A stretch of DNA of 20,731 bases, from positions 1-20,731 of the forward strand of contig JBIIPZ010000044.1 in NCBI GenBank assembly GCA_044342325.1. Direction: 5' to 3'. Position 1 is the first letter of the stretch. Every line of letters starts with the position of its first letter. Positions 199-20,731 of this stretch are shown here, in pieces. The notes below the pieces were generated by a model, which saw only the letters and a list, made by a program, of their open reading frames with translations, ran no database searches and was not told the origin of the DNA. The DNA is from Terrimicrobiaceae bacterium. Lineage in GTDB: Bacteria; Verrucomicrobiota; Verrucomicrobiia; Chthoniobacterales; Terrimicrobiaceae. A program made the translations under genes and the position numbers.

Positions 199-1430
199 TT
201 ATCGAAGTCATCAACAGCGGCACCGAGCTTCTCCTCGGTGAGGTCATAAATACCCATGCCGCATGGATTGCAAAGAGGGTGTTTCCGCTTGGGCTTCGCC
301 TCTCGCGCCAAACAACCGTTCCCGACGGGCCTGCCATCAGAGATGCCGTCTGCGAAACATTCAATCGTGCCGACATTGTTTTTATAACCGGAGGCCTGGG
401 ACCGACGACGGATGACATTACTCGCGAAGCCGTAGCCGAAATTCTTGGTCTCAAGCTTGTGCCAAACGAAACCGTTCGAGATGCTATCGAATCGCGGTTG
501 GCGGCGAGGGGATACAAACTTCTCGAGCGCATGCTGCGTCAAACGATGGTTCCAGAGGGCGCTATCGTGCTTCCCAACAATAATGGCACCGCTCCTGGCC
601 TCTACATTCCCAGTTTGTCCACGCCGTCGTCCGCATCACCGCATTTCTTCCTCCTGCCGGGTCCGCCGCGTGAACTGAAGCCGATGTTTGAAGAATCCGT
701 CATGCCCGTGCTCTGCGGCTTGCTGGGCGACCTGCCTGAAAAGGAATGCCGCATCTATCGGGTCGTCGGCCTCGGTGAAAGCGCCGTGGAGGAGATGATC
801 GGTCTCGAGCTCTCGGCAAATATAGACCTCGAAGTCGGCTACTGTGCCCGCCCGAACGAGGTGGATTTCCGACTCATTGGCTCCAAGGAACTGCTCGACT
901 CCATCGAGCCGCGTATCCTGCAAACCCTCGGAAAAAACCTCGTCTCAGCAAAAGGCGAGGGGATCGAACAATGGATCATTCACCGACTCGCTGCCATGGA
1001 GCGCACCATCTCGACAGCTGAATCCTGCACAGGCGGCCTTCTCGCAAGCCGTCTCACAGATGTCCCAGGTTCCTCAAAAGTCTTCAACCGAGGATTCGTG
1101 ACATATTCGAATGAATCAAAGGTCGACCTGCTTGGCGTGAGTCAATCGATCCTATCCGAGCACGGTGCTGTGAGCGAACCCGTGGCCTGTGCCATGGCCG
1201 AGGGGGCTTTGCTCCATGCGCATTCGGATTTCAGCCTCGCACTCACTGGTGTCGCCGGCCCCGATGGAGGCAGTCCTGAAAAACCCGTTGGCACCGTCTT
1301 TATCGCCATGGCCCAAGCCTCCAAGCCCACTCATTGCCAAAAATTCTCCTTCCCAGTGGACCGTGCCACCTTCAAGCAGCTCGCAACGCAAGCCGCCCTG
1401 GACATGCTCCGCCGCGCCATCGTGGAATAA
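195..1430 (+). CDS. cinA: Competence/damage-inducible protein CinA (molybdopterin-binding-like domain plus NMN deamidase PncC domain)
   Basis: Motifs GTELLLGEVINT, GGLGPTTDDITRE, LPGPPREL, TAESCTGG and TGVAGPDGGS..KPVGTVF. Start placed at ATG 195. Confidence 0.96.
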   Translation: MIIEVINSGTELLLGEVINTHAAWIAKRVFPLGLRLSRQTTVPDGPAIRDAVCETFNRADIVFITGGLGPTTDDITREAVAEILGLKLVPNETVRDAIESRLAARGYKLLERMLRQTMVPEGAIVLPNNNGTAPGLYIPSLSTPSSASPHFFLLPGPPRELKPMFEESVMPVLCGLLGDLPEKECRIYRVVGLGESAVEEMIGLELSANIDLEVGYCARPNEVDFRLIGSKELLDSIEPRILQTLGKNLVSAKGEGIEQWIIHRLAAMERTISTAESCTGGLLASRLTDVPGSSKVFNRGFVTYSNESKVDLLGVSQSILSEHGAVSEPVACAMAEGALLHAHSDFSLALTGVAGPDGGSPEKPVGTVFIAMAQASKPTHCQKFSFPVDRATFKQLATQAALDMLRRAIVE

Positions 1431-1498
1431 ATTTCAGAAGGCAGGCTTGGATTTCGTGATTGCCAGAGATCCACATTTCAGTAGTGTAGGCAACAGTA

Positions 1499-1580
1499 GC
1501 CGGCGTGGCGGAATTGGCAGACGCGCGCGACTCAAAATCGCGTTCCGCAAGGAGTGTCGGTTCGATCCCGACCGCCGGTA
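1499..1580 (+). tRNA. tRNA-Leu, anticodon CAA; CCA not encoded
   Basis: Acceptor stem GCCGGCG/CGCCGGT with discriminator A. D-loop GGAATTGGCAGAC. Anticodon arm CGCGA-CTCAAAA-TCGCG. Long variable arm TCC-GCAA-GGA. T-arm GTCGG-TTCGATC-CCGAC. Confidence 0.97.
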
Positions 1581-1676
1581 GTTCCGTTTCAATAACCCCG
1601 CTTCATAAATGAATAAAAAGGGGCTCTGTAATTTTGGAAACTTGCGCTCCAATTCGGAGGCAGACAGATTGATTCT

Positions 1677-2228
1677 GTGAATTATCCATTCGACATAGAG
1701 AAGTCTGCACAGTGCGCGCACTTTTTTGCGAATCGAGCAGGCGGGGAAATAGAAATTCTAAAGCTAGTCAAACTGATCTATCTGGCGGATCGGAGGTCTT
1801 TCGAGACGCGCCAAGTTCCGATAGTTGGCGGTCACTACTACTCGTTGAAACACGGTCCGGTCACCAGCGAGGTGCTCGAGTTGATCAATGACGGCACGCC
1901 ACTGGGGGAGAGTCCGTGGGAAAAATTGATTTCGGATCGGGCCAACCACAAGGTGGCCACTGCGGCGAAAATTGACTCTTACGATGCTCTTGCGACTTCT
2001 GAAATAAGCATTCTCAACGAGATTTGGAAAGATTTTGGCCCGTTCGACAAATGGGAGTTGGTGGACTGGACGCACAAACATTGTGAGGAGTGGGCAGACC
2101 CGAATGGTGGTCGCTTGGACATCAAGGCCCGCAAATTGGCCGAATCCTTTTCATGGAACGCCGAGGAGGTCGAAACTTTCTTGGAGGAAATCGAGTCGGC
2201 AAACCGAATCCATTCCTTGCTGAAATGA
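1677..2228 (+). CDS. Panacea/SocA-like (DUF4065) antitoxin domain protein
   Basis: LKLVKLIYLADR, YYSLKHGPV and WELVDWTH..C.EW are typical DUF4065 motifs. GTG start. Confidence 0.85.
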   Translation: MNYPFDIEKSAQCAHFFANRAGGEIEILKLVKLIYLADRRSFETRQVPIVGGHYYSLKHGPVTSEVLELINDGTPLGESPWEKLISDRANHKVATAAKIDSYDALATSEISILNEIWKDFGPFDKWELVDWTHKHCEEWADPNGGRLDIKARKLAESFSWNAEEVETFLEEIESANRIHSLLK

Positions 2229-2235
2229 CCCTCGG

Positions 2236-2606
2236 ATGGACTTGACTCTCGGAATGGCTTTCCGGTGCATGGCGGAGCCGGGCACATATACATTCCCTTG
2301 TTCGATCCGAACCGGGATGCCGATGAGATGCTGCTTGTGAACTTTACAACGCTTCGGGAGAAGTGCGTCGATGATTCCTGCATTCTCGATGATAGTGATT
2401 ATGTGGAGTTGAAGCACCAGACCACAGTGGCTTACTCAAGAGCCAATATTTACAAAAAATCCCTGTTCTGCGCTGCGGTTGGGAACAATCATTTTGTTCG
2501 GTTGGACGATCTGCCTGGAGGCACATTGGAAAAAATTATCTCGGGAGCTTTCGCTTCAAATGAATTGCCGAAACGCAAGAAAGCAATTCTGCCCCAAACC
2601 TTTTAG
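2236..2606 (+). CDS. Putative cognate toxin of the Panacea antitoxin (possibly PemK/MazF-like fold); 5' end apparently frameshifted
   Basis: ORF 2265-2606 (HIYIPLFDP..LLVNFTT..DDSCILDDSDY..H...AY..A) resembles, from memory, small proteins encoded beside Panacea genes. The nearest plausible ATG (2236, MDLTLGMAFR) is in a different frame. Confidence 0.55.
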
Positions 2607-2686
2607 GATCCAGCATGCATGTGGGTCTGCGGGTGAAGACGATACTCAGATCGAATCCAGCGGGAAATTGTCCCGAACAACTTACT

Positions 2687-3403
2687 TCAACTGATGAGCA
2701 GCAACCGTGGAGAACTGGTTCGTGGAGCGCGATGGATGCATGGCGGAACGGGAGAATCGGGATATTGCACCGCAATGCGCCAGAAATTGGCTCTTCCAAA
2801 CGGGTAGGGTTCTGCGTGGGGCAAGGCTGCATAGTGAAGGTCATAGCAATTTTCGCTTAAAAACTCACAGAATCCCTCATCATCCTGACCTCCATAGAGC
2901 TTCAGGAGATCTGCTCGAGTTTTCGGAATATCCACATGCCTCACAGCTTCTTCATTCCGGATCGCCTCGCTGCATGCTCCAAAATATGTGCAAAGCCATG
3001 TTTCCGATTGCACCGGAGCACTATCTGCATGAAATGAATAAACATCCGTCGATATGGAAGCGTCGTTGTCATCACTCGGATAAGCATGAATGCAGTTCAA
3101 AACAGGATCCAATCCCAAAGCGCTCAGTAAGCGCTCATCCTGAAGCATTTCATTGATCGCTACGAGACCGGCGGGACTGAGCGGCAGGCTTTGCAAAAAA
3201 TCTTCGTCGAGAAGGGTAATGCCATCGCCTGAACCGATCTTTTCCACGAGTTCAGCAAAATTTCCATCAAGCACCCGTGGCCAACAAAAGGCATTGACTC
3301 CAGCTCCGAATGGTGCCGAAGCCAACTCCTCGAACGAATGGACCACCTTGATGCAATCGAAATCCGGGGGCAGGATTGGGCGCGGGTTTAATTGTTTGGA
3401 CAT
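2687..3403 (-). CDS. DUF1826 domain protein (2OG-Fe(II) oxygenase-like)
   Basis: Motifs VNAFCWPRVLDGNF, DVYSFHADSA, LCTYFG and CIHRAP...PRLLLIS, giving an HxD...H triad. ATG 3403 is preferred over the longer ORF-track start. Confidence 0.8.
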   Translation of the reverse strand: MSKQLNPRPILPPDFDCIKVVHSFEELASAPFGAGVNAFCWPRVLDGNFAELVEKIGSGDGITLLDEDFLQSLPLSPAGLVAINEMLQDERLLSALGLDPVLNCIHAYPSDDNDASISTDVYSFHADSAPVQSETWLCTYFGACSEAIRNEEAVRHVDIPKTRADLLKLYGGQDDEGFCEFLSENCYDLHYAALPHAEPYPFGRANFWRIAVQYPDSPVPPCIHRAPRTSSPRLLLIS

Positions 3404-3426
3404 GCCCGCAGAGGCTAAATTTCCCG

Positions 3427-3640
3427 TGTGGAAAGGAAAGCGAAAGTTTGAAATCCGTCTGATACCAAAATGTGTCGCAGTCTTTTCACCGCTCCCTGTG
3501 AATAACAGAGCCCTTGAATCCATCGAGGAGGGAATGGCTGAACTTATTCCAAACTTATTCACAGACTCGCCAAACCATAGACCCAAGGGACATATCTATA
3601 ACATCTGATAATATATGTAATAGGTAATAGCGACGCTATG
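3427..3640. promoter_or_regulatory. Cluster of DnaA-box matches next to an AT-rich tract (candidate oriC or DnaA-regulated site)
   Basis: TGTGAATAA at 3497-3505 and TTATTCACA at 3555-3563 match TTWTNCACA exactly. TGTGGAAAG at 3427-3435 has 1 mismatch. An AT-rich tract follows at ~3591-3640. Confidence 0.4.
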
Positions 3641-3921
3641 CTTTTCCTGCTATATCACTCTGCTTCGCGACATTATCCTAAATTCAAACTGCCGATGATT
3701 CTTGCGACAAACCATGTTTGCCGATCACTGAGATTCCGCTACCAAAACCCGCGCGGCAGCGCGCCAAAATCCTTGGAGGGTCGACCTCCGGCTTGACCCA
3801 AATACCACCTCGAAAACCTACAAACCACTCCCGAAAACCACCTCGCCAAAAAATCGCACAAACCACAAAGCTTGTCCGCGCGTCCTGCACGCCGAACGAG
3901 TCGCAATGACAGATGAATTTC

Positions 3922-3957
3922 GACCAAAAATTTGGACGATCGTCCAAATTTTTGGTC
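3922..3957. repeat. Perfect 36 bp palindrome with no spacer
   Basis: GACCAAAAATTTGGACGATCGTCCAAATTTTTGGTC equals its own reverse complement. The ORF track shows MDDRPNFWS on both strands here. Confidence 0.97.
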
Positions 3958-4259
3958 TTTTACTTTTACAAAGGATTCCAGCAATTTGATCTGCAAAAAG
4001 CCACCCGCCTCACCCAGGACCTCGTGTGGGTATTTGCGGCGAGGAAAATTACTTCCGATGCAGAGATTTTTTGACTCTTTGCGCATCGAAACACAGCGGG
4101 GTTTATCCTTTGAAGCGCAAACTGCTCTGGATGCGGCAAATTTGATCGCTTAATATTGAAATGTCCGGCAGGTTCATTTTGGATTCTATTTTTATTTCAA
4201 AGATATCTCATAAAAAGAAACATATGCTATATTTTTACACATTAGTTTTTTAAAACTGC

Positions 4260-4844
4260 TCAATGATCTAATCCAGGATTCAATGCCTCAATCTGGATCT
4301 TATAAACTGTTGTTTTAATATCTATTGCACCGGATTCATTGGTCATATTCCCCTCGCCGGTTTTATCATTTGTAAATCCCAAAGAAATCAGGCCATTTTC
4401 AAACGATTCAGCACCATTATTCGGCTCTACCTTGACAATCCAAGAGTCCGCAGCGTCTTCTCCAGTTTCTACGAATGGAATACCCGACCGTTTGAACAAC
4501 TCTAATACCTCATTGCGCTTTTGCTCGCGTTGCGCGGCATCTTCATAGCGGAGCCTAAAAATACGCATTGGAGATTCTACGAGACCGACCGGTAAGTTTG
4601 CGTCGGCGATGGATTCCAAGGATTGACGCAACCCTGGAACCTCGGCAGCGGCCTCTGACACTTGGACCTCCGCCACCACGGTGGATTGTCTCTCCTTTCG
4701 GATACCATTTAGTCCAAGAACGAGAATCGTGATTGGCAAAGCCAGAGCCACCCCCAGCAGGCCCAGAATTTGAAAGACCTTGGCATTCACTCGGAATTTC
4801 GGCAAGGGCTCCTCGGGTCTCTGAGCGGGATCGGTTTCTGACAT
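4260..4844 (-). CDS. Hypothetical protein with an N-terminal membrane anchor, divergent from lepA
   Basis: 194 aa ORF with an ATG start and one hydrophobic segment (VFQILGLLGVALALPITILVLGL). No family recognised. Confidence 0.7.
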   Translation of the reverse strand: MSETDPAQRPEEPLPKFRVNAKVFQILGLLGVALALPITILVLGLNGIRKERQSTVVAEVQVSEAAAEVPGLRQSLESIADANLPVGLVESPMRIFRLRYEDAAQREQKRNEVLELFKRSGIPFVETGEDAADSWIVKVEPNNGAESFENGLISLGFTNDKTGEGNMTNESGAIDIKTTVYKIQIEALNPGLDH

Positions 4845-4925
4845 GCCTCTACGAAATAGCTCAGCGGCTTGCCATCTGGCGAATCGAAAACATTCTTCAT
4901 TTTTCTTCGCAAGAGCAGCTTCAGA

Positions 4926-4954
4926 TTGACCCGCCGCTCTGAGTGCCCGATAGT
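4926..4954 (+). promoter_or_regulatory. Possible sigma70-type promoter for lepA
   Basis: TTGACC-17 nt-GATAGT, ending 12 nt before the lepA ATG. The -10 box is a weak match. Confidence 0.35.
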
Positions 4955-4966
4955 CCCCGGCTTTTC

Positions 4967-6772
4967 ATGGCTATAGAAAACACGCGCAACTTTTGCATCA
5001 TCGCCCACATCGACCACGGTAAAACGACTCTCTCCGACCGCCTTTTGGAGGTAACGGGAACGATCCAAAAGCGCGAGTCCCAAGAGCAACTCCTCGATGC
5101 CATGGACCTCGAGCGCGAGCGTGGCATTACAATCAAAGCCCACCCGATTGCCATGGAATACACTGCCAAAAGTGGCGCTCATTATAAGCTCAATCTTTCC
5201 GATACGCCCGGGCATGTGGACTTTTCCTACGAAGTGTCCCGCTCGCTGGCTGCCTGCGAAGGCGCTCTTCTGATTATCGACGCGGCGCAGGGTGTGGAGG
5301 CCCAGACTGTGGCCAATGTCCACCTCGCCGAGAAGCAAGGACTCAAGCTCATTCCAGTCATCAATAAGATCGACCTCCCCAATGCCGATGTCGAAAATGC
5401 CAAGCGGCAACTCGAGGACATTCTTGCGATCCCAGCCGAGGAGGCCATCCTTGCCAGCGCGAAAGCAGGCATCGGCATTCAGGACATCTTGGAAGCTGTC
5501 GTGGAACGCATCCCCCACCCGGCAGGTAAGCCCGAGGCCCGTCTGCGCGCTCTCACCTTTGACTCGCATTTTGACACCTACCGTGGAGTGGTCATCTACA
5601 CCCGCGTCATGGAGGGCACGATCAAGGCTGGCGATCAGGTGAAACTCATGGCCACGAACTCAAATTACGAGGTCAAGGAAGTCGGAGTTTTCAAGCCGCA
5701 ACAGCCTAAGTTTTTCGCGAGGGAAAAACTCATCGCCGGCGACATCGGCTATGTCATTGCTAATATCAAGACCTCCTCGGAAGTGAAGGTTGGCGATACT
5801 CTCACCAACGCCCGCCAACCTGCCGAGGAGCCCCTGCCCGGCTTCCAAGTCGTGCAGCCCATGGTCTTCAGCGGCATTTATCCTATCAACACGGCTGATT
5901 TCGAGCACCTCAAGGCAGCCATAGCGAAGCTCCAACTGAACGACGCTGCCTTCCAATTCATGGCCGAGTCGAGCGTGGCTCTTGGCTTTGGATTCCGTTG
6001 CGGATTCCTAGGTTTGTTGCACATGGAGATCATCATAGAGCGTCTCCGCCGCGAGTTCGACATGGACATCATCGCGACCTACCCCTCGGTCATTTACGAG
6101 GTGCAGCGCACGAATGGCGAAGTCCTCCGCATCGATAATCCCGACCAACTCCCCGACCCCAGTGTGATCGAGGAAATCCGCGAACCGATGGTGCGCTGCT
6201 TCGTGATGCTCCCGAATGAATACATCTCGCCCATCCTGCAACTCATCATGGAAAAACGCGGCGAGGTAAGCCACACCGAGTCCATCGACACCAAGCGCGT
6301 CATGCTCACAGCCGACCTCCCGCTTAACGAAATTCTCGTCGATTTTGTGGATAAAATGAAATCCATCACCCGAGGCTACGGTTCGATGGACTACGAGCAG
6401 GCTGGCTACAAACCGGCGAAGCTCGTGAAGCTGGAGATGCTCGTGAATGCCGAACCAGTGGATGCCTTCTCCTCCATCGTCCATCGCGAGAAGGCCGAGT
6501 CGCGCGGTCGTGCGCTTGCCACCAAGCTCAAGGAAGTCATCCCTCAACAACTCTACCAAGTGGCCATCCAAGCCGCCGTGGGCGGAAAGATCGTGGCCCG
6601 CGAGAGTGTGAGCGCCATGAGGAAAAATGTGACCGCGAAGTGCTACGGCGGCGACATCAGCCGCAAGCGCAAGCTCCTCGAGAAGCAGAAGGAAGGCAAA
6701 AAACGCATGAAGGCTGTTGGCACCGTCAACATCCCACAGGAAGCCTTCATCGAGGTCCTCCGCACCAGCTGA
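4967..6772 (+). CDS. lepA: Elongation factor 4 (LepA)
   Basis: RNFCIIAHIDHGKTTLSDR, ERERGITIK, DTPGHVDFSYEVSRSL, GFRCGFLGLLH and KCYGGDISRKRKLLEKQKEGKKRMK. Confidence 0.99.
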   Translation: MAIENTRNFCIIAHIDHGKTTLSDRLLEVTGTIQKRESQEQLLDAMDLERERGITIKAHPIAMEYTAKSGAHYKLNLSDTPGHVDFSYEVSRSLAACEGALLIIDAAQGVEAQTVANVHLAEKQGLKLIPVINKIDLPNADVENAKRQLEDILAIPAEEAILASAKAGIGIQDILEAVVERIPHPAGKPEARLRALTFDSHFDTYRGVVIYTRVMEGTIKAGDQVKLMATNSNYEVKEVGVFKPQQPKFFAREKLIAGDIGYVIANIKTSSEVKVGDTLTNARQPAEEPLPGFQVVQPMVFSGIYPINTADFEHLKAAIAKLQLNDAAFQFMAESSVALGFGFRCGFLGLLHMEIIIERLRREFDMDIIATYPSVIYEVQRTNGEVLRIDNPDQLPDPSVIEEIREPMVRCFVMLPNEYISPILQLIMEKRGEVSHTESIDTKRVMLTADLPLNEILVDFVDKMKSITRGYGSMDYEQAGYKPAKLVKLEMLVNAEPVDAFSSIVHREKAESRGRALATKLKEVIPQQLYQVAIQAAVGGKIVARESVSAMRKNVTAKCYGGDISRKRKLLEKQKEGKKRMKAVGTVNIPQEAFIEVLRTS

Positions 6773-13284: not shown

Positions 13285-13694
13285 TCTCACGGCGGGATTG
13301 GGTTCTGGATACCAATGTGCTGGTTTCCGGTCTTCTCTCTGCAAAGGGGCCGCCTGGGCGGCTGATTGACGCTATTCTTGCACAAAGGGTGGCCATCGCA
13401 TTCGATGACAGAATCCTGTGCGAATATAGGGAGGTGCTTGCTCGTCCGAGGTTTTCATTCAAAGCGGCCGATGTCGCGGCGTTTTGGGAGATTCTGCCTT
13501 TTCAAACCCACCTTGTGGCGATGCCAATTCAAGGGCTCGAAGCAAGCGATGCCTCGGATACCAAATTTCTCGAGGTAGCCGCTGCGACTGAGTCGAAAAT
13601 TCTCGTGACTGGCAATGAGCGCCACTATCCGGAGAAAACACGGGGAGTGGTCAAGATGCTTTCTCCAAGAGAAGCCTTTGAGCTGGTTGTCTAA
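13281..13694 (+). CDS. PIN-domain (VapC-like, PIN_3 type) toxin
   Basis: VLDTNVLVSGLL, EYREVLARP, D.SDTKFLEVA and LVTGNERHY. Confidence 0.92.
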   Translation: MISRRDWVLDTNVLVSGLLSAKGPPGRLIDAILAQRVAIAFDDRILCEYREVLARPRFSFKAADVAAFWEILPFQTHLVAMPIQGLEASDASDTKFLEVAAATESKILVTGNERHYPEKTRGVVKMLSPREAFELVV

Positions 13695-14803
13695 AGCCAC
13701 AACAGAACAGAGCGGCTCATGCGCTCATCTTCACCAAACCTTCCACCAGGGCTTGTCATCGCTTTTTGCGTCGCCTTGGGCGGTGGGAGCGGCTGTTCCA
13801 GCTCCGCTTGCGTTGAAGGCTATGAGGTTTTCGGTGCTGCGGTCGAGTTTTGCTCGGCCGCTGGTGGCTTTGGTGACTTCTTGGCCGAGGCCGATATTGT
13901 CCAGGCGGGTTTCGACATCCAGGACGCTGATGCCTTGCGAGTCGAACTCGCGGGGCCAGACGGCGCTGATTTTTTTCGTGTCGGCGAAGTCGGTTTGGAT
14001 TTTTTGGAAGTCTTCGGAGCTGATGCTGGAGAACTCCAAGCGTTTGATGGCGCCGAGGTCGGTTTCAGTGACCCAGCGGGCGAGGATTTTGTTGAGAATG
14101 GTTGGCGGGGCTTCGGCGTTTCCATTGGGACGGGCCAGCAAGTCGAGTGCTTCGCGCGCGGCATCTTCCTTGGCAAATGCCGTGCCGCCGACGGAATTTT
14201 TGCCCGAGAGGTTATCCACCGCTATGACTTCGCCCGTGTCGCCGCGCACCGCACGGATTGTGCCTGTGGCAGCGAAACTGTGCTGCGGAGGGCGTCCATG
14301 CAGGGTTTCGCGGCCGAGGTATTTCATCGCTACCTCCCCCTCGATCACGAAGTCCGCACGACTTGCGGGATCGACGACAAAAAATTGCATTCCCTTCGCC
14401 GCATCCTCCAACACATGCTGCAGCGAGTCTTTGCCATCGGATTCCGGCAAGCGCTCGCGAATCCGGATGGCAACGCGCGGCGCTCCCTTGCGTTGCATGA
14501 GCTCCCGCAAAGCCAATATGTTCTTGGCGTCCGGCGTGCCCTTTTCCACGTCCGCCCGAATCTTGACCGTGTAGATTTGATCCTGTCCCAGACGCGAGCT
14601 GATGACCTCGTAACTTTTCACATGCCCGAAGGCTGAACTCAGGATGCGGTCAAAATCCAAAGCGAAATTCGAGACCCCGCTCGATGCGAGCACATCGACA
14701 CCACTTCCCTTGCGCACGGCCTCCCGGAGCGCATCGGCGAGCGCCTGCTCGCGAGCTGTTTTCTGACCCCCGCCGCGCGTCCCTCGGCCTCGACGGTGGC
14801 AGT

Positions 14804-14827
14804 TTGGATTTGACCACCGAGGACACC
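14804..14827. repeat. Direct repeat copy 1 (core GATTTGACCACCGAGGAC), inside the signal-peptide coding region of copy B
   Basis: The 18 bp core at 14807-14824 is identical in all three copies. 21 bp are identical to each of the other two copies. Confidence 0.95.
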
Positions 14828-14834
14828 GAGAACG

Positions 14835-14904
14835 CAACCGAGCGCGAGGTAGAGCAACCGAAGGTTGGCCCGAAGGGCGAGCCGAGCTGGAGCGAGCGAG
14901 TCAA
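14835..14904. mobile_element. 64 bp structured mini-insertion flanked by a 3 bp direct repeat (CAA)
   Basis: CAA at 14835-14837 and 14902-14904. Excision restores MKKLTLHLCVLGVLGGQIQTATVEAEG and an ungapped alignment to 17739-17787. Contains hairpins CAACC-GAA-GGTTG and GCCC-GAA-GGGC. Confidence 0.7.
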
Positions 14905-14923
14905 AGGTGGAGAGTGAGTTTTT

Positions 14924-16309
14924 TCATCGGCTGGGTTTGTCTTGGGACGATGTCTGGTTGGGGGCGGACTGCACGAGTCGAGGAAATTGGCCGACAAAAG
15001 GAAGTGGCAGCGAGACGAGCTTGGAGGTCGCTCCCTCGCCCTCGATGAAGGCCACCGAGGGCTTATCGGTATTAAATCTCAGCGCGGCGGGGGAGTTTTT
15101 TTCACTGAGGAAGAGTTGGAGCGATTTGAGGCGTCCAGTTTTGCCTGACTTCACCTCGATGGGCAGAATCCCACTTCCGAGTTGCGCTAAAAAATCCACC
15201 TCCGCTGTGGAATTCGGGCTCTCACGCGTCCAGTAAAAGGCCTCGGATTTTGTCCATGGATCCCCGCCATGGAGCAGATTTTGGGCGATCGCCTGCTCGC
15301 AGAGTGCACCTCGGTTGACCAAGAAGAGTTCGTCCAGTTTCTCAAGGCTGTCGATTTGCAGACCCAGGGCCCTGTAGGCCAGGCCTACATCGAGGAAGAA
15401 CACCTTGAAGTTGCGGTCATCGGCCTCAGCGGCGAGAGGCACTCCATTTCCATGGCAACGCCGCACCTTGTGAAACACCCTCGCCAAACACAATAAATGC
15501 AAGGCCTCGCCGAGATTCTTCGAGCGCTCGGCGGGGTCCACCTCGCTGAATTTGAACTTGCGCCCCAGCATCGCCGGCACACGGGCAAATAAACGATCCA
15601 TCCGTGGCTTCTGCACCCGCCGGGCGTATTTTTGGAAATCATCTTGATAGGTTGCCAGGATCGACTCCTGCACCCGCGCGCAGTCGCGGTAAGAGCCTGT
15701 TTCGGCAAAAACCGCCACCGCTTCCGGCATTCCGCCGACCACAAGATATTGCCTGAAAGCTGCGAGCAAGTCCTCGTGGAGCGCCTCCGGAAAAGCCTCC
15801 CCCCAGCTCCATCCTGCCATCCAGGAGATCAACCCCGCACGCCCGGTGGCTTGCAGAAATTCCTCGAACACCAGCGGTCCCAGGTGCAAATACTCGATCC
15901 TCCCCACCGGCATCGAGAACGCGTGATCCTCCAAGAGTAAATCCAGCAGCGAGCCTGCAGCCAGGACATGCAGCCCCGGCAATTCCTCATGAAAATAACG
16001 CAACTTCGCGAACACCTCGGGCGCTGCTTGAATCTCATCGAGAAAAAGTAGCGTCTTCCCCTCCACTACCGCCATTCCGTATCTGGCCTCCAACAGCCGC
16101 ACGGTCTCCTTCACCGATGCCCCGGAAAAAAGCCCCGCGAGCGAGGCATCCCGCTCGAAATTCAGCTCCAGGATTCCCTCAAACGCCTCAGCCGCCAAAG
16201 CCCGGGCCAAATGCGATTTACCCACCTGCCGCGCCCCACGCAAAACCAAGGGCTTGCGGCCAGCGCGATTCCGCCATTTCAATAATTCGTCGAGTGCCCT
16301 TCGTTTCAT
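14924..16309 (-). CDS. AAA+ ATPase (AAA_14) with DUF4143 and a C-terminal PD-(D/E)xK-like motif
   Basis: Walker A GARQVGKS, Walker B LLFLDEIQ, YLVVGGMPE and EVDFL...PIEVKSG. Confidence 0.92.
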   Translation of the reverse strand: MKRRALDELLKWRNRAGRKPLVLRGARQVGKSHLARALAAEAFEGILELNFERDASLAGLFSGASVKETVRLLEARYGMAVVEGKTLLFLDEIQAAPEVFAKLRYFHEELPGLHVLAAGSLLDLLLEDHAFSMPVGRIEYLHLGPLVFEEFLQATGRAGLISWMAGWSWGEAFPEALHEDLLAAFRQYLVVGGMPEAVAVFAETGSYRDCARVQESILATYQDDFQKYARRVQKPRMDRLFARVPAMLGRKFKFSEVDPAERSKNLGEALHLLCLARVFHKVRRCHGNGVPLAAEADDRNFKVFFLDVGLAYRALGLQIDSLEKLDELFLVNRGALCEQAIAQNLLHGGDPWTKSEAFYWTRESPNSTAEVDFLAQLGSGILPIEVKSGKTGRLKSLQLFLSEKNSPAALRFNTDKPSVAFIEGEGATSKLVSLPLPFVGQFPRLVQSAPNQTSSQDKPSR

Positions 16310-16379
16310 TTGCGCTATTTTAGCAGGTTATTTTAACATTAAAAAGGTAATTTAGGTAGGTGAAATTTCGTGAATTGCC

Positions 16380-16430
16380 TTGGATTTGACCACCGAGGAC
16401 TGAGAGCGAGAGGTGGTAATTAGCTTTTCG
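16380..16430. repeat. Direct repeat copy 2: decayed duplicate of the copy B 5' end
   Basis: TTGGATTTGACCACCGAGGAC at 16380-16400 is identical to 14804-14824. The minus strand reads LSVLGGQIQG. Gapped similarity continues to ~16430. Confidence 0.9.
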
Positions 16431-16569
16431 ATGTGAGATTGCGTGACATCATGTGAGATTTTTTTAATTCAGATAACGGGCGGAGACATAGTGGTTCAGA
16501 ATGATTTTGCCGCCCTTTGCTTTGAGTGGAATATGCATGATTATATGGATCTGCCAAAAATCTTCTTGC

Positions 16570-16597
16570 TTGACATGAGGGCGACTAAATGTAAAAT
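16570..16597 (+). promoter_or_regulatory. Sigma70-type promoter for the second AAA-DUF4143 gene; transcript probably near-leaderless
   Basis: TTGACA (16570-16575)-16 nt-TAAAAT (16592-16597), 9 nt before ATG 16607. Confidence 0.65.
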
Positions 16598-16606
16598 TCA
16601 CTTGCA

Positions 16607-17737
16607 ATGATTACTCGGCCTATTTGGATTCAGCGTTTGGAGAGGGCATGGCAAGAGGTGCCCTTGGTGTGGCTGGCGGGTGTGCGGCGCGTGGGCAAGA
16701 CTGTTCTGGCCAAGGAATTTGGCGATTCGGAGTTCCTGAACTGCGATTTGCCTGGAGAGGCATGGCGGTTGGAGGATCCCGAGGCGTTTTTCAAGTCTGT
16801 GCGCAAACCGCTGGTGGTTCTCGACGAGGTCCACCAACTGCCCGACCCGAGTCGGATTTTGAAAATTGCGACGGACGCCTTCCCGCATTTGCGCGTGCTG
16901 GCGACTGGATCTTCGACGCTTGCAGCGAGCCGGAAGTTTCGAGACACGCTCACAGGGCGGAAGCGCGTGGTGGCTCTCACTCCTGTGCTGGCCGAGGAAA
17001 TGGAGGCTTTCGGCATCGCGGATATGGAAGCGCGCGTTTTGCGAGGAGGTCTGCCGCCGGCCCTCCTGCGGGATGGCCCGGACTGGGAGTTTTATTCCGA
17101 GTGGCTCGATTCGTATTTCGCGAGGGATGTCCAGGAGCTTTTCCATGTCGGAAAACGGGCCGAGTTTTTGCGGATGGTATCGCTGGTTCTCCGGCAGAGC
17201 GGCGGGTTGCTGGAGATCACGAGCTTGGCGAAGCACACCGGAGCGAGTCGGCCAACCGTGATGACCTGGCTCGATGTGCTGCAAATCACGCAAGTCGCCC
17301 GTCTGGTGCGGCCCTTTTCCGGCGGAGGCCGCCGCGAGATCATTGCGCAGCCGAAGCTCTACGCTTTCGACACGGGATTCGTGTGCCATGCGCGGGGATG
17401 GGACCGATTGAAGCCCGAAGACCTTGGATTTCTTTGGGAGCATTTGGTCTTGGACACGCTTGTGGCTGCACCGGCGCGAGAAATTCTGTTCTGGAGGGAC
17501 AAATCCCAACGCGAAATCGACTTCGTTGTTCCCCGATCGAGAGATGCCGTGGACGCCATCGAATGCAAATGGACTCCCTCGGCGTTCGAACCGGAAAACC
17601 TCTCCGCATTCCGATCCATTTATCCTAGCGGCCGCAATGTTGTTTGCTGTCCGAATCTCGCAAAACCCTATCAGCGACACTTTGGTGATTTGCTCGTCGA
17701 GTTCATGAACGCAAAAGACCTGCGGGTTTTTATTTAA
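16607..17737 (+). CDS. AAA+ ATPase (AAA_14) with DUF4143 and a C-terminal PD-(D/E)xK-like motif
   Basis: Walker A GVRRVGKT, Walker B VVLDEVH, ATGSS, PKLYAFDTG and EIDFVV...AIECKW. Confidence 0.92.
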   Translation: MITRPIWIQRLERAWQEVPLVWLAGVRRVGKTVLAKEFGDSEFLNCDLPGEAWRLEDPEAFFKSVRKPLVVLDEVHQLPDPSRILKIATDAFPHLRVLATGSSTLAASRKFRDTLTGRKRVVALTPVLAEEMEAFGIADMEARVLRGGLPPALLRDGPDWEFYSEWLDSYFARDVQELFHVGKRAEFLRMVSLVLRQSGGLLEITSLAKHTGASRPTVMTWLDVLQITQVARLVRPFSGGGRREIIAQPKLYAFDTGFVCHARGWDRLKPEDLGFLWEHLVLDTLVAAPAREILFWRDKSQREIDFVVPRSRDAVDAIECKWTPSAFEPENLSAFRSIYPSGRNVVCCPNLAKPYQRHFGDLLVEFMNAKDLRVFI

Positions 17738-17738
17738 T

Positions 17739-17787
17739 GATTTGACCACCGAGGACACCAAGAATACGGAGGTTGAGATTCAGTTTC
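17739..17787. repeat. Direct repeat copy 3: decayed duplicate of the copy B 5' end
   Basis: GATTTGACCACCGAGGACACC at 17739-17759 is identical to 14807-14827. It matches the insertion-excised copy B at 40/49 nt without gaps. The minus strand reads KLNLNLRILGVLGGQI. Confidence 0.92.
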
Positions 17788-17861
17788 GAAGAAGACAAAC
17801 GCTTTGCGGCGGGTCTTGGCCGATTTTTCAGGAGTGGTTTTTGTGACGGCGGGAGTCCTTT

Positions 17862-17890
17862 TCAACCCGTGACGGTTTGTCACGGATTGA
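17862..17890. repeat. Inverted repeat with 12 bp arms, 1 mismatch and a 5 nt spacer
   Basis: TCAACCCGTGAC-GGTTT-GTCACGGATTGA. Confidence 0.75.
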
Positions 17891-17997
17891 CTGCATGAGG
17901 GCTTGGCTTTGAATTGTGGCGAATTCGCCTTAATTGAACGCGAGTTTCTGTGTAGGCGATTTTTGCCACGAGTTGTCGCAGAAGCGTGAAAATCTTC

Positions 17998-19221
17998 CTA
18001 CCAAACCTTCCACCAAGGCTTGTCGTCGCTTTTCGCGTCGCCTTGGGCGGCGGGAGTGGCTGTTCCAGCTCCGCTTGAGTTAAAGGCGATGAGGTTTTCG
18101 GTGCTGCGGTCGAGTTTTACACGATCGCTGGTGGCTTTGGTGACTTCTTGGCCGAGGCCCATGTTATCGAGGCGGGTTTCGACATCCAGGACGCTGATGC
18201 CTTGCGAGTCGAACTCGCGGGGCCAGACGGCGCTGATTTTTTCCGTGTCGGCGAAGTCGGTTTGGATTTTTTGGAAGTCTTCGGAGCTGATGCCGGTGAA
18301 CTCCAGGCGTTTCATGGCTCCGAGGTCGGTTTCGGTGACCCAACGGGCGAGGATTTTATTGAAGAGTGGCGGGGTGCCGTCGTTCTTGCCTGCGGTGCTG
18401 AGGACTTTCTGGATGACATCCCGCGCGGCCATTTCCTTGGAGTCGAGGTCGCTTTCCACATTTTCGGTGCCAGGCAACGCGGCGACGGCGACGACTTCGC
18501 CGGTCTCGGGGCGGATGGCGCGGAGTTCGCCACCGACGGAGAAGACATGCTGGGGCAGACTGCCGTAGAAGCTTTGCTTGCCGACATAGCGGGCCACGAT
18601 GTTGCCTTCGATCAAGAAGTCGCTCTTCTGCGAGATGCCTGCGCTGCGGAGCTTGGCGTTTTTGTCGTTGCCGAGGATGGCATCGCGCGCAGCCATCTTG
18701 CTTTCCTGCCCGCTGGCGGTGCCTACATCCACGAGGTTGAATTGCAACTCTCTCGCCGTCTGCTCCATGATGCCTTGGGCGTATTTGGTCGGCGCGGGAG
18801 CGCCATCGATCTGCTCCTGCACAGCAATAGAAACACGCGGCGAGCCTTTGAGGAGAACGATCTGGCGCAGGGCGAGCGTGTTCTTGGCACCCGGAGCGCC
18901 CTTCTCCACCTCGGCCTTCACTTTGACCGTGTAAATCTGATCCTTGCCGAGCCCTGAGCTGATGACCTTGTAGCTCTTCACATGCCCGAAGGCGGAGCTG
19001 AGTATGCGGTCGTAATCCAAGGTAAAATCCGACACGCCGGTGGAGCTTAAGACATCGACTCCGGTGCCAACGCGCACCGCTTCGCGCAAGGCATCAGCGA
19101 GCGCCTGCTCGCGGGCGGTCCTCATGTCGCCTGGCGCACGGCCTTCGGCTTCGACGCTGGCGGCTGGTGCAAAGTAAGAAGTCAGAAGGAGGAAGGATGA
19201 AGTGAGAATGAGTTTTTTCAT
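17998..19221 (-). CDS. Secreted/periplasmic protein with an FlgT-N/LPP20-like N-terminal domain (copy A, intact)
   Basis: Signal peptide MKKLILTSSFLLLTSYFAPA. VEAEG.A.......AREQALADALREAV....GV.V.S...V....L..D.I.....G.VK.Y....YTVKVKAEV fits the FlgT N-terminal pattern. Ends in KPWWKVW. Confidence 0.8.
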   Translation of the reverse strand: MKKLILTSSFLLLTSYFAPAASVEAEGRAPGDMRTAREQALADALREAVRVGTGVDVLSSTGVSDFTLDYDRILSSAFGHVKSYKVISSGLGKDQIYTVKVKAEVEKGAPGAKNTLALRQIVLLKGSPRVSIAVQEQIDGAPAPTKYAQGIMEQTARELQFNLVDVGTASGQESKMAARDAILGNDKNAKLRSAGISQKSDFLIEGNIVARYVGKQSFYGSLPQHVFSVGGELRAIRPETGEVVAVAALPGTENVESDLDSKEMAARDVIQKVLSTAGKNDGTPPLFNKILARWVTETDLGAMKRLEFTGISSEDFQKIQTDFADTEKISAVWPREFDSQGISVLDVETRLDNMGLGQEVTKATSDRVKLDRSTENLIAFNSSGAGTATPAAQGDAKSDDKPWWKVW

Positions 19222-19305
19222 GGTTTTTTTATTTGGCTGTTGCTGCTCTGAGCTACTGCTGAAGCGTGGTCTGTTTTCATACTTTGTCCTTCATCCTTCT
19301 GACTT
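19172..19305. repeat. Inverted pair of heptamer tandem arrays (AAG[T/G]nnG-type) enclosing the copy A start codon
   Basis: AAGTAAG AAGTCAG AAGGAGG AAGGATG AAGTGAG at 19172-19206 and CATACTT TGTCCTT CATCCTT CTGACTT at 19278-19305. 23/28 positions are complementary. Confidence 0.85.
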
Positions 19306-20661
19306 TCCCCCAACTTCCCAGTGACCACCTTTGTCGGGGCCTATGCGATGGAGGCGGTTGCTGGCTTTGAGTTGGCGGATTTGTTTTTCCACAGCGCGGG
19401 TGCTGAGATCGAGAATTCGAGCCATTTCCGGAATCGAAATGCCGGAAGATTCCCGAACGGCGGCGAGAATCTTCTCCTCGGTTTTCACCGGCGTTTTCCC
19501 CGAACTTTTCCCCGAACTTTTCCCCGAACTTGGTTCGGTAATCGTTTTCGCCAGATGCTCTGGCGCGAATGCGAATTTCAACCAGAAGTCCCCGGGCGTG
19601 TAATCAATGATGGGCACCGGGCAGTGGGCGGCCTGACACGTGGTTAGAATTCGCTCGATCCCTCGACCCCAGGATTCGATTTCACCAGCGCGGAAGAAGG
19701 CATTTGCGATATCCGGGTTGAAGGGTTTGGAGGAATGCTTTTCCGTCAAGCGAGCAACCGTCCAGTCCAGGGGAAGATGTCCCGAATTCCAGATCAGCAA
19801 CTTGTCGGCATAGACGCTGATCTGGACGGGTGCTCCGCTGGCATAATCTTTGTGCGCGATTGCGTTTAAAATGGCTTCGCGCAGGGCTTCCTCGGGGACG
19901 GGATAGGTTTCCACTCGCTGCACGCCGTCATAGGAGATCAAGGCCTTGAGATACTTGGCCCGGAGCGTTTCGAGGGTTTTATCGACCTGACTGAAGAGAT
20001 TGCCATGAATTTCATCATGGAAAACAAGGTCGGCATTCGTGCGGAAGAAGCCGATCTTGATGTAGGCCCCGGTGACAAATCTCTCGGGATCGGGGTGAAA
20101 GAGGAGGATTGCGGCGCGTTTCAGGTAAGTTCCATCCATGAGATGAAGCTTTTCCAAAAGACCCTCATCCGCTTCTTGAAGAATTTCGGGTGTGAGTCGT
20201 TTGCTCCGAAGAGCACGCTTGCGGAAGGCCGCAAGAGAAGACGGATCAAGATCGGCTTGCGAAACATTTGGCACCGGCACCCCGTCCCAATTCCGACCCT
20301 GCTTGCGCAGAAGAAACCGGTCCAGCGCTGCGCCTTTCAATTCCTGCTTCGTGCTGCCGCTCCGATAGTGGTATTCCCCCTTGTAGCTGATCGGATAGGG
20401 ATAAGGTTCGACAACAATCTCGATGAGATCGCACTTCTGCTCTTGCCGAAGGTTCACATCGACCAAAATCCCGAGCACATCACGGGTTTTGTTTGGAATG
20501 TCCTCCAACAATTTCCGGGAATCCTTCACGCCCACCGTGTCTCCCTTGTTGTTCTTCCCGAGGACAAGCATCCCACCACCAGCGTTTGCGAATCCGCAAA
20601 TCCATTTCAAGTATTCGTCACGCCAGGATTCTTTCCATTCGATGGATTGATGTTCGGTCAT
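19291..20661 (-). CDS. AlbA_2 (Schlafen-like) domain + HATPase_c_4/RecG C-terminal-like domain + C-terminal HTH protein
   Basis: EHQSIEWKESW...ICGFANAGGG.L.LG, REAILNAIAHKDY, NP.IANAFFRAG.IESWGRGI, and an HTH ending RIGPDKGGHWEV. Confidence 0.9.
   Translation of the reverse strand: MTEHQSIEWKESWRDEYLKWICGFANAGGGMLVLGKNNKGDTVGVKDSRKLLEDIPNKTRDVLGILVDVNLRQEQKCDLIEIVVEPYPYPISYKGEYHYRSGSTKQELKGAALDRFLLRKQGRNWDGVPVPNVSQADLDPSSLAAFRKRALRSKRLTPEILQEADEGLLEKLHLMDGTYLKRAAILLFHPDPERFVTGAYIKIGFFRTNADLVFHDEIHGNLFSQVDKTLETLRAKYLKALISYDGVQRVETYPVPEEALREAILNAIAHKDYASGAPVQISVYADKLLIWNSGHLPLDWTVARLTEKHSSKPFNPDIANAFFRAGEIESWGRGIERILTTCQAAHCPVPIIDYTPGDFWLKFAFAPEHLAKTITEPSSGKSSGKSSGKTPVKTEEKILAAVRESSGISIPEMARILDLSTRAVEKQIRQLKASNRLHRIGPDKGGHWEVGGKSEG
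19494..19529. repeat. 12 bp tandem repeat, three copies, in frame (SSGK)
   Basis: TTTTCCCCGAAC at 19494, 19506 and 19518, with a degenerate unit at 19482-19493. Confidence 0.95.
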
Positions 20662-20687: not shown

Positions 20688-20731
20688 GGTTTTCATGTCG
20701 CCGGGCGCTCAGCCTTCGGCCTCGACGGTAG
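20688..20731 (-). pseudogene. Truncated 5' fragment of the FlgT-like gene (runs off the window edge)
   Basis: Reads TVEAEG*APGDMKT versus SVEAEGRAPGDMRT in copy A. 36/44 nt identical to 19117-19160. In-frame TGA at 20711-20709. Homology stops 26 nt before the AlbA_2 ATG. Confidence 0.88.

Follow-up and report, generated by a model that had tools for sequence, protein, structure and literature searches.

Two paralogous genes of a Terrimicrobiaceae bacterium, designated copy A and copy B, carry gene starts whose hydrophobic signal-peptide cores match dispersed repeats of two unrelated families. Both genes lie on the minus strand of a 20,731-nucleotide (nt) stretch of DNA (the window), which is the entire 20.7-kb contig C8 of bin G000 (86% complete, 78 contigs, 2.9 Mb); the other G numbers used below denote the genomes of relatives, which are metagenome bins of one genus. 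We consider it likely that the 14-codon core of these signal peptides is a copied arm of a dispersed repeat, that the two arm families swap there as modules, that the truncated gene starts nearby are dead stubs, and that the start of copy B is itself broken.

Both signal-peptide cores match dispersed repeat arms

Copies A and B are identical at 17 of their first 18 nt (direct repeat D13) and rejoin at ...VEAEGRA, while the cores in between are unrelated, as the first-pass annotation of the window had observed. In copy A, the core is read from the heptamer array also recognized there, which comprises six 7-nt units (AAGnnnG on the plus strand, 19172-19213). These units are imperfect, and no two are alike. 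The array of copy B is composed of 9-nt units. Both styles proved to be real dispersed repeat families, and in both cases it is the pyrimidine-rich strand that is translated as the hydrophobic core.

The 9-mer arm family is characterized by two or three CACNGAG-type units next to a terminal TT(A/G)ACC motif, and 46 strict generic arms of this kind were found in G000 outside the window. An 18-mer of the 9-nt-unit repeat occurs exactly at three places, all of them in the window and in the same orientation (14807, 16383, and 17739; D3), and with up to three mismatches at 32 places in G000. The three exact places fall in the direct repeats R1 to R3 (Table 1). R1 and the signal-peptide arrays of eight orthologs or paralogs align with generic 9-mer arms; over about 30 nt, terminal motif included, ortholog 9-mer cores are nearly identical to generic arms of G000 (e.g., C16:167). 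Elsewhere in G000, 14 convergent 9-mer arm pairs with arms 63 to 144 nt apart constitute gene-less hairpins. Such hairpins were located on C13, C19, C35, C38, C40, C41, C44, C48, C55, C63, C68, and C70, and several of them share their loop sequence and conserved flanks. Since many contigs of the bin end at 9-mer arms, these arms appear to break the assembly.

For the heptamer family, a 22-nt core pattern (up to two mismatches) gave 22 matches in 11 of the 41 genus genomes compared to a single control match, and 14 of the 22 lie outside the copy A/B gene family. Inverted heptamer pairs were seen on G030 C64, G062 C32, and G025 C3. Six heptamer loci were examined. Among them, a gene for a 23S rRNA intervening-sequence protein (PF05635) is enclosed by arms in G025, as is a second AlbA_2 gene in G062, and both genes take their final codons and stop (...KSEG) from the purine arm. 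The same holds for the AlbA_2 gene upstream of copy A, whose last codons and stop are encoded by the arm at 19276-19305. As cargo genes of different families all end in ...KSEG, the arm seems to rewrite the 3′ end of whatever gene it flanks. A link of such repeats to four-helix-bundle and GxxExxY genes, which the first-pass annotation had mentioned, thus exists within this genus: besides the PF05635 case, one 9-mer arm adjoins a GxxExxY (TIGR04256) gene on C52 of G000. Within G000 itself, likeness to the heptamer pattern was found only in a tandem at C78:28721 and in the partner arm. This tandem (C78:28721-28758) is nearly perfect, has five GGATGAA units, the heptamer also present in the copy A arms, and lies inside a long open frame of the other strand. 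A detector for heptamer arrays found 44 arrays in G000, compared to 2 to 6 in five shuffled versions.

The intact starts have the features expected of a Sec-type signal peptide, namely, a charged n-region and an uncharged hydrophobic core, and they would putatively mediate export. Copy A and eight of the nine starts compared begin with MKK (MKN in G008), and codons 7 to 20 are devoid of charged residues in all nine. The copy A array, with 10 residues on it, has a mean Kyte-Doolittle value of 1.26, and by eye, the sites APA|AS and IQA|AT agree with the −3/−1 rule. Cores encoded by arrays were also found in other exported proteins of relatives. A 114-residue lipoprotein has a heptamer-encoded core in two of its four orthologs, and a DUF4384/CsgG-like protein of G062 has a 9-mer-encoded core; tblastn revealed no ortholog of either gene in G000, a bin that is 86% complete.

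The core is an exchangeable 42-nt module

The copy A/B family is present in 19 of the 41 genus genomes. Among 11 full-length copy-A orthologs, the mature parts of which are 89 to 98% identical, the core is of the 7-mer type in three (G000, G015, and G025), of the 9-mer type in six (G030, G001, G062, G026, G031, and G008), and ordinary in two (G033 and G064 C4). Whichever array it consists of, the core is 42 nt long (nine of nine genes compared, three 7-mer and six 9-mer). Pairwise comparison delimited the exchanged segment. Copy A of G000 and its G062 ortholog share 126 of 150 nt upstream, 18 of 18 nt of the start, and 286 of the 300 nt that follow the core; however, only 15 of the 42 core positions agree. 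With G025, the upstream region matches at 41 of 150 positions, the start at 18 of 18, the core at 40 of 42, and the next 300 nt at 259. The 7-mer cores are identical at 40 to 41 of 42 positions, while the flanks of the same genes reach only 86 to 93%.

Eight changes of signal-peptide type are required on a tree built from 18 mature coding sequences, compared to a mean of 8.9 with shuffled labels. The tree left out the partial genes of G012 (a 7-mer-like variant), G018, and G023, as well as G061, G032 C159, G064 C12, and copy B of G000. The 7-mer type occupies three places, at least two of which are forced by well-supported branches. The first-pass annotation had suggested that signal-peptide type would track the upstream cargo gene, but the same AlbA_2 gene precedes a 7-mer core in two genomes and a 9-mer core in three. 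Judged by these comparisons, core type appears to follow neither the gene tree nor the upstream gene, and the swaps probably came about by homologous exchange. Beyond the copy-A orthologs, a 9-mer core is present in G032 of the B clade and in G064 C123 of a third clade that is only 67% identical, and the other members of these two clades have drifted cores that retain the ...GQIQ end.

Arms in signal peptides are a filtered subset

In the signal-peptide frame, the variable base of the 9-nt unit decides between Cys, Gly, Ser, and Arg. Arg-type units make up 67 of the 129 units in generic arms, whereas none was counted by eye among the 27 units of nine signal-peptide arrays, which comprise 16 Cys, 10 Gly, and 1 Ser. 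By eye, all nine of these arrays end in GGTCAA (Gly-Gln), while about two-thirds of generic arms end in GGTTAA, which is a stop codon in this frame. The Gly-type unit is rare in generic arms (5 of 129) but is carried by R1, R2, and R3, which argues that all three are descendants of signal peptides.

Dead gene starts lie next to inserted genes

The direct repeats around the two DUF4143 ATPase genes are, by their alignments, decayed 5′ stubs of the copy A/B family. R3 is identical to an A-type start at 41 of 48 positions, from the Lys codons to the arm end, and R2 aligns with a B-type start; in both cases, none of 1,000 shuffles reached the score. The stubs are cut at the arm end or 4 nt past it. 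A stub at the position of R2 upstream of ATPase 1 is also present in G007 and G030 C46.

A further insertion concerns the AlbA_2 gene, which sits at the 5′ end of a copy-A-type gene in G000, G001, G015, G030, and G062; G008 represents the state without it. In G001 and G015, a copy-A-type start with 36 codons meets the AlbA_2 upstream region at a single, fixed junction, and window positions 20690-20731 are joined to it at the same point. G030 has a 9-mer stub at this position and G062 a 7-mer stub detected by pattern match, with the junction itself read in G001 and G015 only. The AlbA_2 gene is thereby placed between a pyrimidine 7-mer array (in the stubs of G001, G015, and G062) and the purine arm, with about 100 nt of host gene separating the left array from the cargo; in the window, the left part of this arrangement is cut by the contig end. 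Stub and gene combine a 7-mer with a 9-mer core in G001 and G062, two 7-mers in G015, and two 9-mers in G030. In G033, the order is a 49-codon stub, a DUF6088-type gene and its partner, and a complete gene whose core is ordinary.

An intact signal peptide downstream of the inserted gene and a 5′ stub upstream of it fit incoming DNA that carried a homologous gene start rather than an arm that rebuilt one. This could have happened in one step, if DNA with a defense-type gene and a homologous start of the family recombined within the gene on one side and was joined illegitimately on the other. The first-pass annotation had proposed that an incoming cassette can rebuild a working export signal. 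The gene directly upstream of copy B is ATPase 1; its stop overlaps the copy B ATG (ATGA), and the same overlap exists in G032, G007, G030 C46, and G029, so ATPase 1 is rather an old conserved neighbor than a fresh cassette. The more distant paralog on G064 C123 likewise has the tail of a related ATPase in front of its 9-mer signal peptide.

The start of copy B is broken

The 9-nt-unit repeat at 14807-14836 that the first-pass annotation described as the core of copy B is real, but the gene around it is not intact. From the ATG at 14927, the frame ends at codon 9. The repeat-encoded core is read in the +1 frame, behind a TTG at 14855-14857 that lies within an insert. Past ...VEAEGRAAG, a 1-nt deletion separates this frame from that of the body, which is open between 14837 and 13731. 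No Lys or Arg is found among the first residues of the TTG-start version. Relative to orthologs, copy B has two lesions: 68 nt (14837-14904) replace one base, and one base is absent between 14766 and 14767. The intact orthologs (G032, G007, G030 C46, and G029) read from MKKLILH... directly into the mature protein. The "reconstructed" copy B peptide that had been proposed does resemble them, although obtaining it requires the removal of 68 nt; in this genome, the signal peptide of copy B has been destroyed and not rebuilt. With insert and deletion having wrecked its start, copy B would be a recent pseudogene or at least not exportable.

Contigs from X1, the probable source run, and from X2, which belongs to a different study, show the 1-nt deletion, with no gaps over 14500-14875, while contigs of more distant relatives (runs X3 and X4) retain the extra letter at 14766/14767. 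Of 23 runs listed, 12 contain half or more of the sampled words from 14500-15300, where copy B and ATPase 1 lie. With or without a one-copy insert, the start and the body of copy B both abut the repeat to which the insert belongs.

This repeat, of about 98 nt, is dispersed and has three hairpins. In an alignment of 10 copies, pairing in the first hairpin was kept through two-sided changes in five of six pairs, and the other two hairpins were conserved. A covariance model (model R1), which matches the window at 14822-14908, gave 26 matches in G000 and matched all 36 other genus genomes searched (1 to 51 matches in each) as well as 8 of 24 genomes from other genera of the order. Neither the window region 13500-19500 nor four full copies of the repeat had a match in Rfam. 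The repeat core reached summed contig depths of 400 to 5,000 in lake metagenomes. In each of the eight G000 copies that were aligned from outside the window, 9-mer-array sequence immediately precedes the left end of the repeat; its right end leads into array units in six of the eight, with C9b and C40 running into other repeats. The C4 and C38 copies hold a nested extra stretch of about 34 nt. The copy B insert shares its truncated first hairpin and its right junction with the copies in the dead stubs of G007 and G030 C46, which suggests that copy B acquired it from a stub of this kind through exchange. In G018, the repeat lies within the copy A signal peptide, with the frame open throughout.

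A gene between two inverted copies of this repeat on C9 was considered as a transposase but turned out to be an ordinary gene beside a ClpS-like reading frame (ClpS by eye). Three Y1 transposase matches were obtained in G000. The fold of 14800-14930 was no better than that of shuffled sequences on either strand (z −0.30 and −1.07).

Gene content of the window

On the minus strand, the AlbA_2 gene, copy A, ATPase 1, and copy B follow each other in this order, and ATPase 2 lies between copy A and ATPase 1 on the opposite strand (Table 1). The two DUF4143 ATPases match the candidate defense family PDC-S01 with 2e-141 (ATPase 1) and 4e-51 (ATPase 2). Fourteen DUF4143 ATPase genes were counted in G000, including the window matches at 15143-15646 and 17123-17572. 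For at least two of the 14 (C40:6877 and C63:32622), a copy of the 98-nt repeat is no more than about 1.2 kb away. Copies A and B scored 27.4 and 28.1 bits against FlgT_N (PF16548), under the cut-off of 28.8, and the score for LipL46-like NF033164 was 33.4 against a cut-off of 400; going by these scores, the relation to FlgT_N or LipL46 would be one of likeness only. The 3′ 300 nt of the two copies (18000-18299 and 13733-14032) are 94% identical compared to 73% for an upstream stretch, which points to gene conversion at the 3′ ends. C-terminal fragments of the family are also present in G008, G028, and G033.

Table 1. Positions of genes, repeats, and lesions in the window and of related features elsewhere
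Feature	Position	Strand	Basis
Copy B, 5′ end broken; ATG 14927, stop codon 9 at 14901-14903	13731..14927	−	Frame reading, ortholog alignment
72-residue open reading frame (ORF) from TTG in inserted repeat; signal-peptide-like start, ...VEAEGRAAG, then out of frame	14639..14857	−	
Site of 1-nt deletion relative to orthologs	14766..14767	−	
R1, 9-mer array encoding ...CVLGVLGGQIQ in +1 frame	14807..14836	−	
68-nt piece of ~98-nt structured repeat, in third 9-nt unit of copy B array	14837..14904	+	
ATPase 1, AAA_14 + DUF4143, PADLOC candidate defense family PDC-S01	14924..16309	−	Profile matches
R2, decayed 5′ stub of B-type gene start, cut after array	16379..16428	−	
ATPase 2, AAA_14 + DUF4143, PADLOC candidate defense family PDC-S01	16607..17737	+	Profile matches
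R3, decayed 5′ stub of A-type gene start (Lys codons + 9-mer array), abuts ATPase 2 stop	17739..17786	−	
Copy A, intact secreted-type protein, 407 residues	17998..19221	−	ORF + profile scan
42-nt exchangeable hydrophobic-core module, copy A codons 7-20, inside six-unit heptamer array 19172-19213	19162..19203	−	
I1, inverted heptamer arm, purine-rich on coding strand, partner of copy A array	19276..19305	−	
SLFN_AlbA_2 + HATPase_c_4 + HTH gene	19291..20661	−	Family profile matches
Tail of copy-A-type 5′ stub, about codons 21-36, in-frame TGA; contig ends inside	20690..20731	−	
...KSEG + stop endings from purine heptamer arm	Window 19291-19305; G062 C32 (L061 857-880); G025 C3 (L062 160-181)		
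Other exported proteins of relatives with array-encoded cores	G030 C64:16412-16756; G025 C3:28853-29197; G062 C32:21078-22190		
~98-nt repeat copies in G000	C2:5085-5182; C9:45997-46097; C9:46751-46849; C36:44002-44095		
Further ~98-nt repeat copies in G000	C40:7795-7892; C4:3060-3190; C38:49304-49434		

Proposed mechanism and alternatives

Signal peptides are tolerant of sequence change. On their pyrimidine strand, the arms encode Leu, Cys, Val, Gly, Ser, Phe, and Thr, which a signal peptide could tolerate in its core. The genus has two arm families, one of 9-nt units ending in GGTCAA or GGTTAA and one of 7-nt units ending in CTT, and at other loci their arms occur as inverted pairs that flank small inserted genes or as gene-less hairpins. 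In the model that we favor, an arm may have been captured at the origin of the copy A/B family, and the intact signal peptides presumably function. Being flanked by 18 nt with the start codon and Lys codons on one side and by the mature N terminus on the other, the 42-nt module would be open to homologous recombination or gene conversion among alleles, paralogs, and leftover stubs, by which 7-mer, 9-mer, and ordinary cores would be swapped. Selection would retain only those arms that have no Arg codons and no TAA from GGTTAA. The conserved gene start would repeatedly have anchored defense-type insertions upstream, each leaving a dead 5′ stub (R2, R3, and 20690-20731), and the start of copy B would later have been wrecked by the ~98-nt repeat, which would target 9-mer arrays, and then by the 1-nt deletion.

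Several observations weigh against this model. The genomes compared, as metagenome bins of one genus, are not independent of each other. Resolution is poor in the copy-A section of the tree, with 6 of 15 inner forks open, and the scatter of core types may therefore reflect few recombination events rather than many. Array-encoded signal peptides are, within G000 itself, local to the copy A/B family: among the 44 heptamer arrays of G000, that of copy A is the sole one on a plausible signal peptide, and no 9-mer array elsewhere in G000 encodes a convincing one. The degenerate B-clade cores could mean that 9-mer-like sequence is ancestral and that generic arms are alike for another reason. Finally, no contig of the four runs bridges the insert in copy B, and its one-copy status rests on the assembly of the bin.

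The first-pass annotation had assumed that the arm of each incoming cassette rebuilds the export signal of the downstream gene, so that signal-peptide type records the cargo. An intact signal peptide after the inserted gene and a dead start before it, at three or four independent insertions (AlbA_2, the DUF6088-type pair of G033, ATPase 1, and ATPase 2), would be expected on this assumption, as would the 7-mer stubs in front of 9-mer genes in G001 and G062 and the heptamer arm that terminates the AlbA_2 gene. However, the AlbA_2 insertion, identical in its junction, is associated with two 7-mer and three 9-mer cores, the 7-mer core of G025 follows another gene, and in G008 a 9-mer core exists without any insertion. 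The stubs of 36 and 49 codons, moreover, include 15 to 28 mature codons, which identifies the duplicated piece as gene sequence and not merely arm, and the break points differ, lying right after the array, after codon 36, or after codon 49. We therefore regard this explanation as unlikely. It is similarly doubtful that the arm in the signal peptide is an active recombination site at whose GGTCAA end defense-type genes enter, which would make it a portable export signal and a landing pad for cassettes at once. The start, the Lys codons, and the core would then stay on the arm side of the crossover, and it would be just as questionable a consequence that each arrival leaves a working arm-encoded signal; the comparison to an integron attachment site, though with a different site and some other enzyme, has equally little probability. 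The scattered break points in the four insertion events argue against such a site.

Retention of the arrays because of an RNA hairpin with a role in control or processing of the AlbA_2-copy A transcript, with the peptide being incidental, is improbable in our view. The upstream arm and the copy A array (30 nt each, 83% complementary) do enclose the start codon in a 67-nt loop, and the stem folds with −46 kcal/mol (z −3.34), a value as good in only 1 of 200 shuffles; in G030, a similar purine/pyrimidine arm pair extends across the intergenic DNA in front of the lipoprotein gene. Nevertheless, G030, G001, and G062 keep the upstream arm next to a 9-mer core that cannot pair with it, indicating that pairing is not required, and G025 has a 7-mer core without an upstream arm. 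A phase-variable locus, in which slippage of the 7-nt unit switches copy A on and off in the manner of Neisseria opa CTCTT, would account for an array in the leader peptide with a unit length that is not a multiple of 3, and the opa leader repeats are the closest published precedent (PMC3960869). We give this explanation very little credence, as the core measures 42 nt in three 7-mer and six 9-mer genes alike, the units are imperfect, and no length variant was seen among the assembled genes and stubs compared. Equally remote, and already disfavored, is mutational convergence, by which slippage-prone, T-rich signal-peptide DNA would generate arrays in place. Signal-peptide cores are indeed T-rich and change tolerant, and the degenerate B-clade cores show drift; slippage would, however, have to produce nearly letter-for-letter identity with generic arms over about 30 nt, terminal motif included, and 7-mer cores that are better conserved (40 to 41 of 42) than their flanks (86 to 93%).

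Relation to known systems

If the capture of repeat arms as modeled above is general, signal-peptide regions would be a safe harbor for repeat families inside genes and, at the same time, hot spots of gene exchange and defense-gene insertion. Gene callers and orthology methods would mis-start or split such genes, as happens with copy B. The difference between filtered arms (no Arg units and no TAA end) and generic ones would provide a direct readout of selection on the signal peptide. In the literature searched, we found no description of dispersed repeat arms that supply signal-peptide cores, none of two unrelated repeat-built cores that alternate as modules at one site, and no report of STRR repeats encoding signal peptides.

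The cyanobacterial STRR heptamer repeats are dispersed arrays of 7-nt units that often form inverted pairs, and the heptamer arms described here resemble them in these respects. Intervening sequences of 23S rRNA that bear an ORF occur in Leptospira and Coxiella. Similar to arm-bounded small-gene cassettes of this kind (PF05635 and GxxExxY cargo), heptamer arms bracket a PF05635 gene in G025 and an AlbA_2 gene in G062, and the purine arm supplies ...KSEG and the stop; here, however, a single arm serves as host coding sequence, and the adjoining cargo (AlbA_2 and DUF4143) measures 1.1 to 1.4 kb and not 0.35 kb.

In integron cassette arrays, attC hairpins with bulged bases stand in one orientation next to intI. 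The direct repeats R1 to R3 likewise separate single genes, some 9-mer hairpin ends resemble, by eye, the RYYYAAC/GTTRRRY boxes, and G000 has an integron integrase. The 9-mer stems differ in being nearly perfect and without bulges, and the hairpins are scattered over many contigs. A profile scan detected no integrase in the window. The integrase of G000 is encoded on C30:1-2977 (L064; TIGR02249, 415.9 bits, cut-off 265). Upstream of it are three small ORFs in reverse orientation, with two palindromic repeats that resemble each other in between, and a 9-mer array lies in frame within the long integrase ORF (...TTEDTENTE... linker). An integron as the source of R1 to R3 was rejected, since the C30 integron has other repeats between its small genes, and R2 and R3 align with gene starts.

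Rickettsia palindromic elements (RPEs) are hairpin-forming repeats that are translated in frame within host proteins (PMC10969869). The likeness lies in a dispersed hairpin-forming repeat that resides inside an ORF and leaves the host protein undestroyed. RPEs are whole elements of about 150 bp in many kinds of proteins, whereas here a defined stretch of 14 signal-peptide codons is taken over by one arm of 7- or 9-nt units, and two unrelated arm types alternate at one site among orthologs. The opa genes of Neisseria have CTCTT coding repeats in the leader peptide (PMC3960869) and share with copies A and B a short pyrimidine-rich tandem repeat that encodes the hydrophobic part of a leader. The opa repeats are perfect and vary in number, which changes the frame; the arrays described here are imperfect and fixed at 42 nt, and the whole module is replaced.

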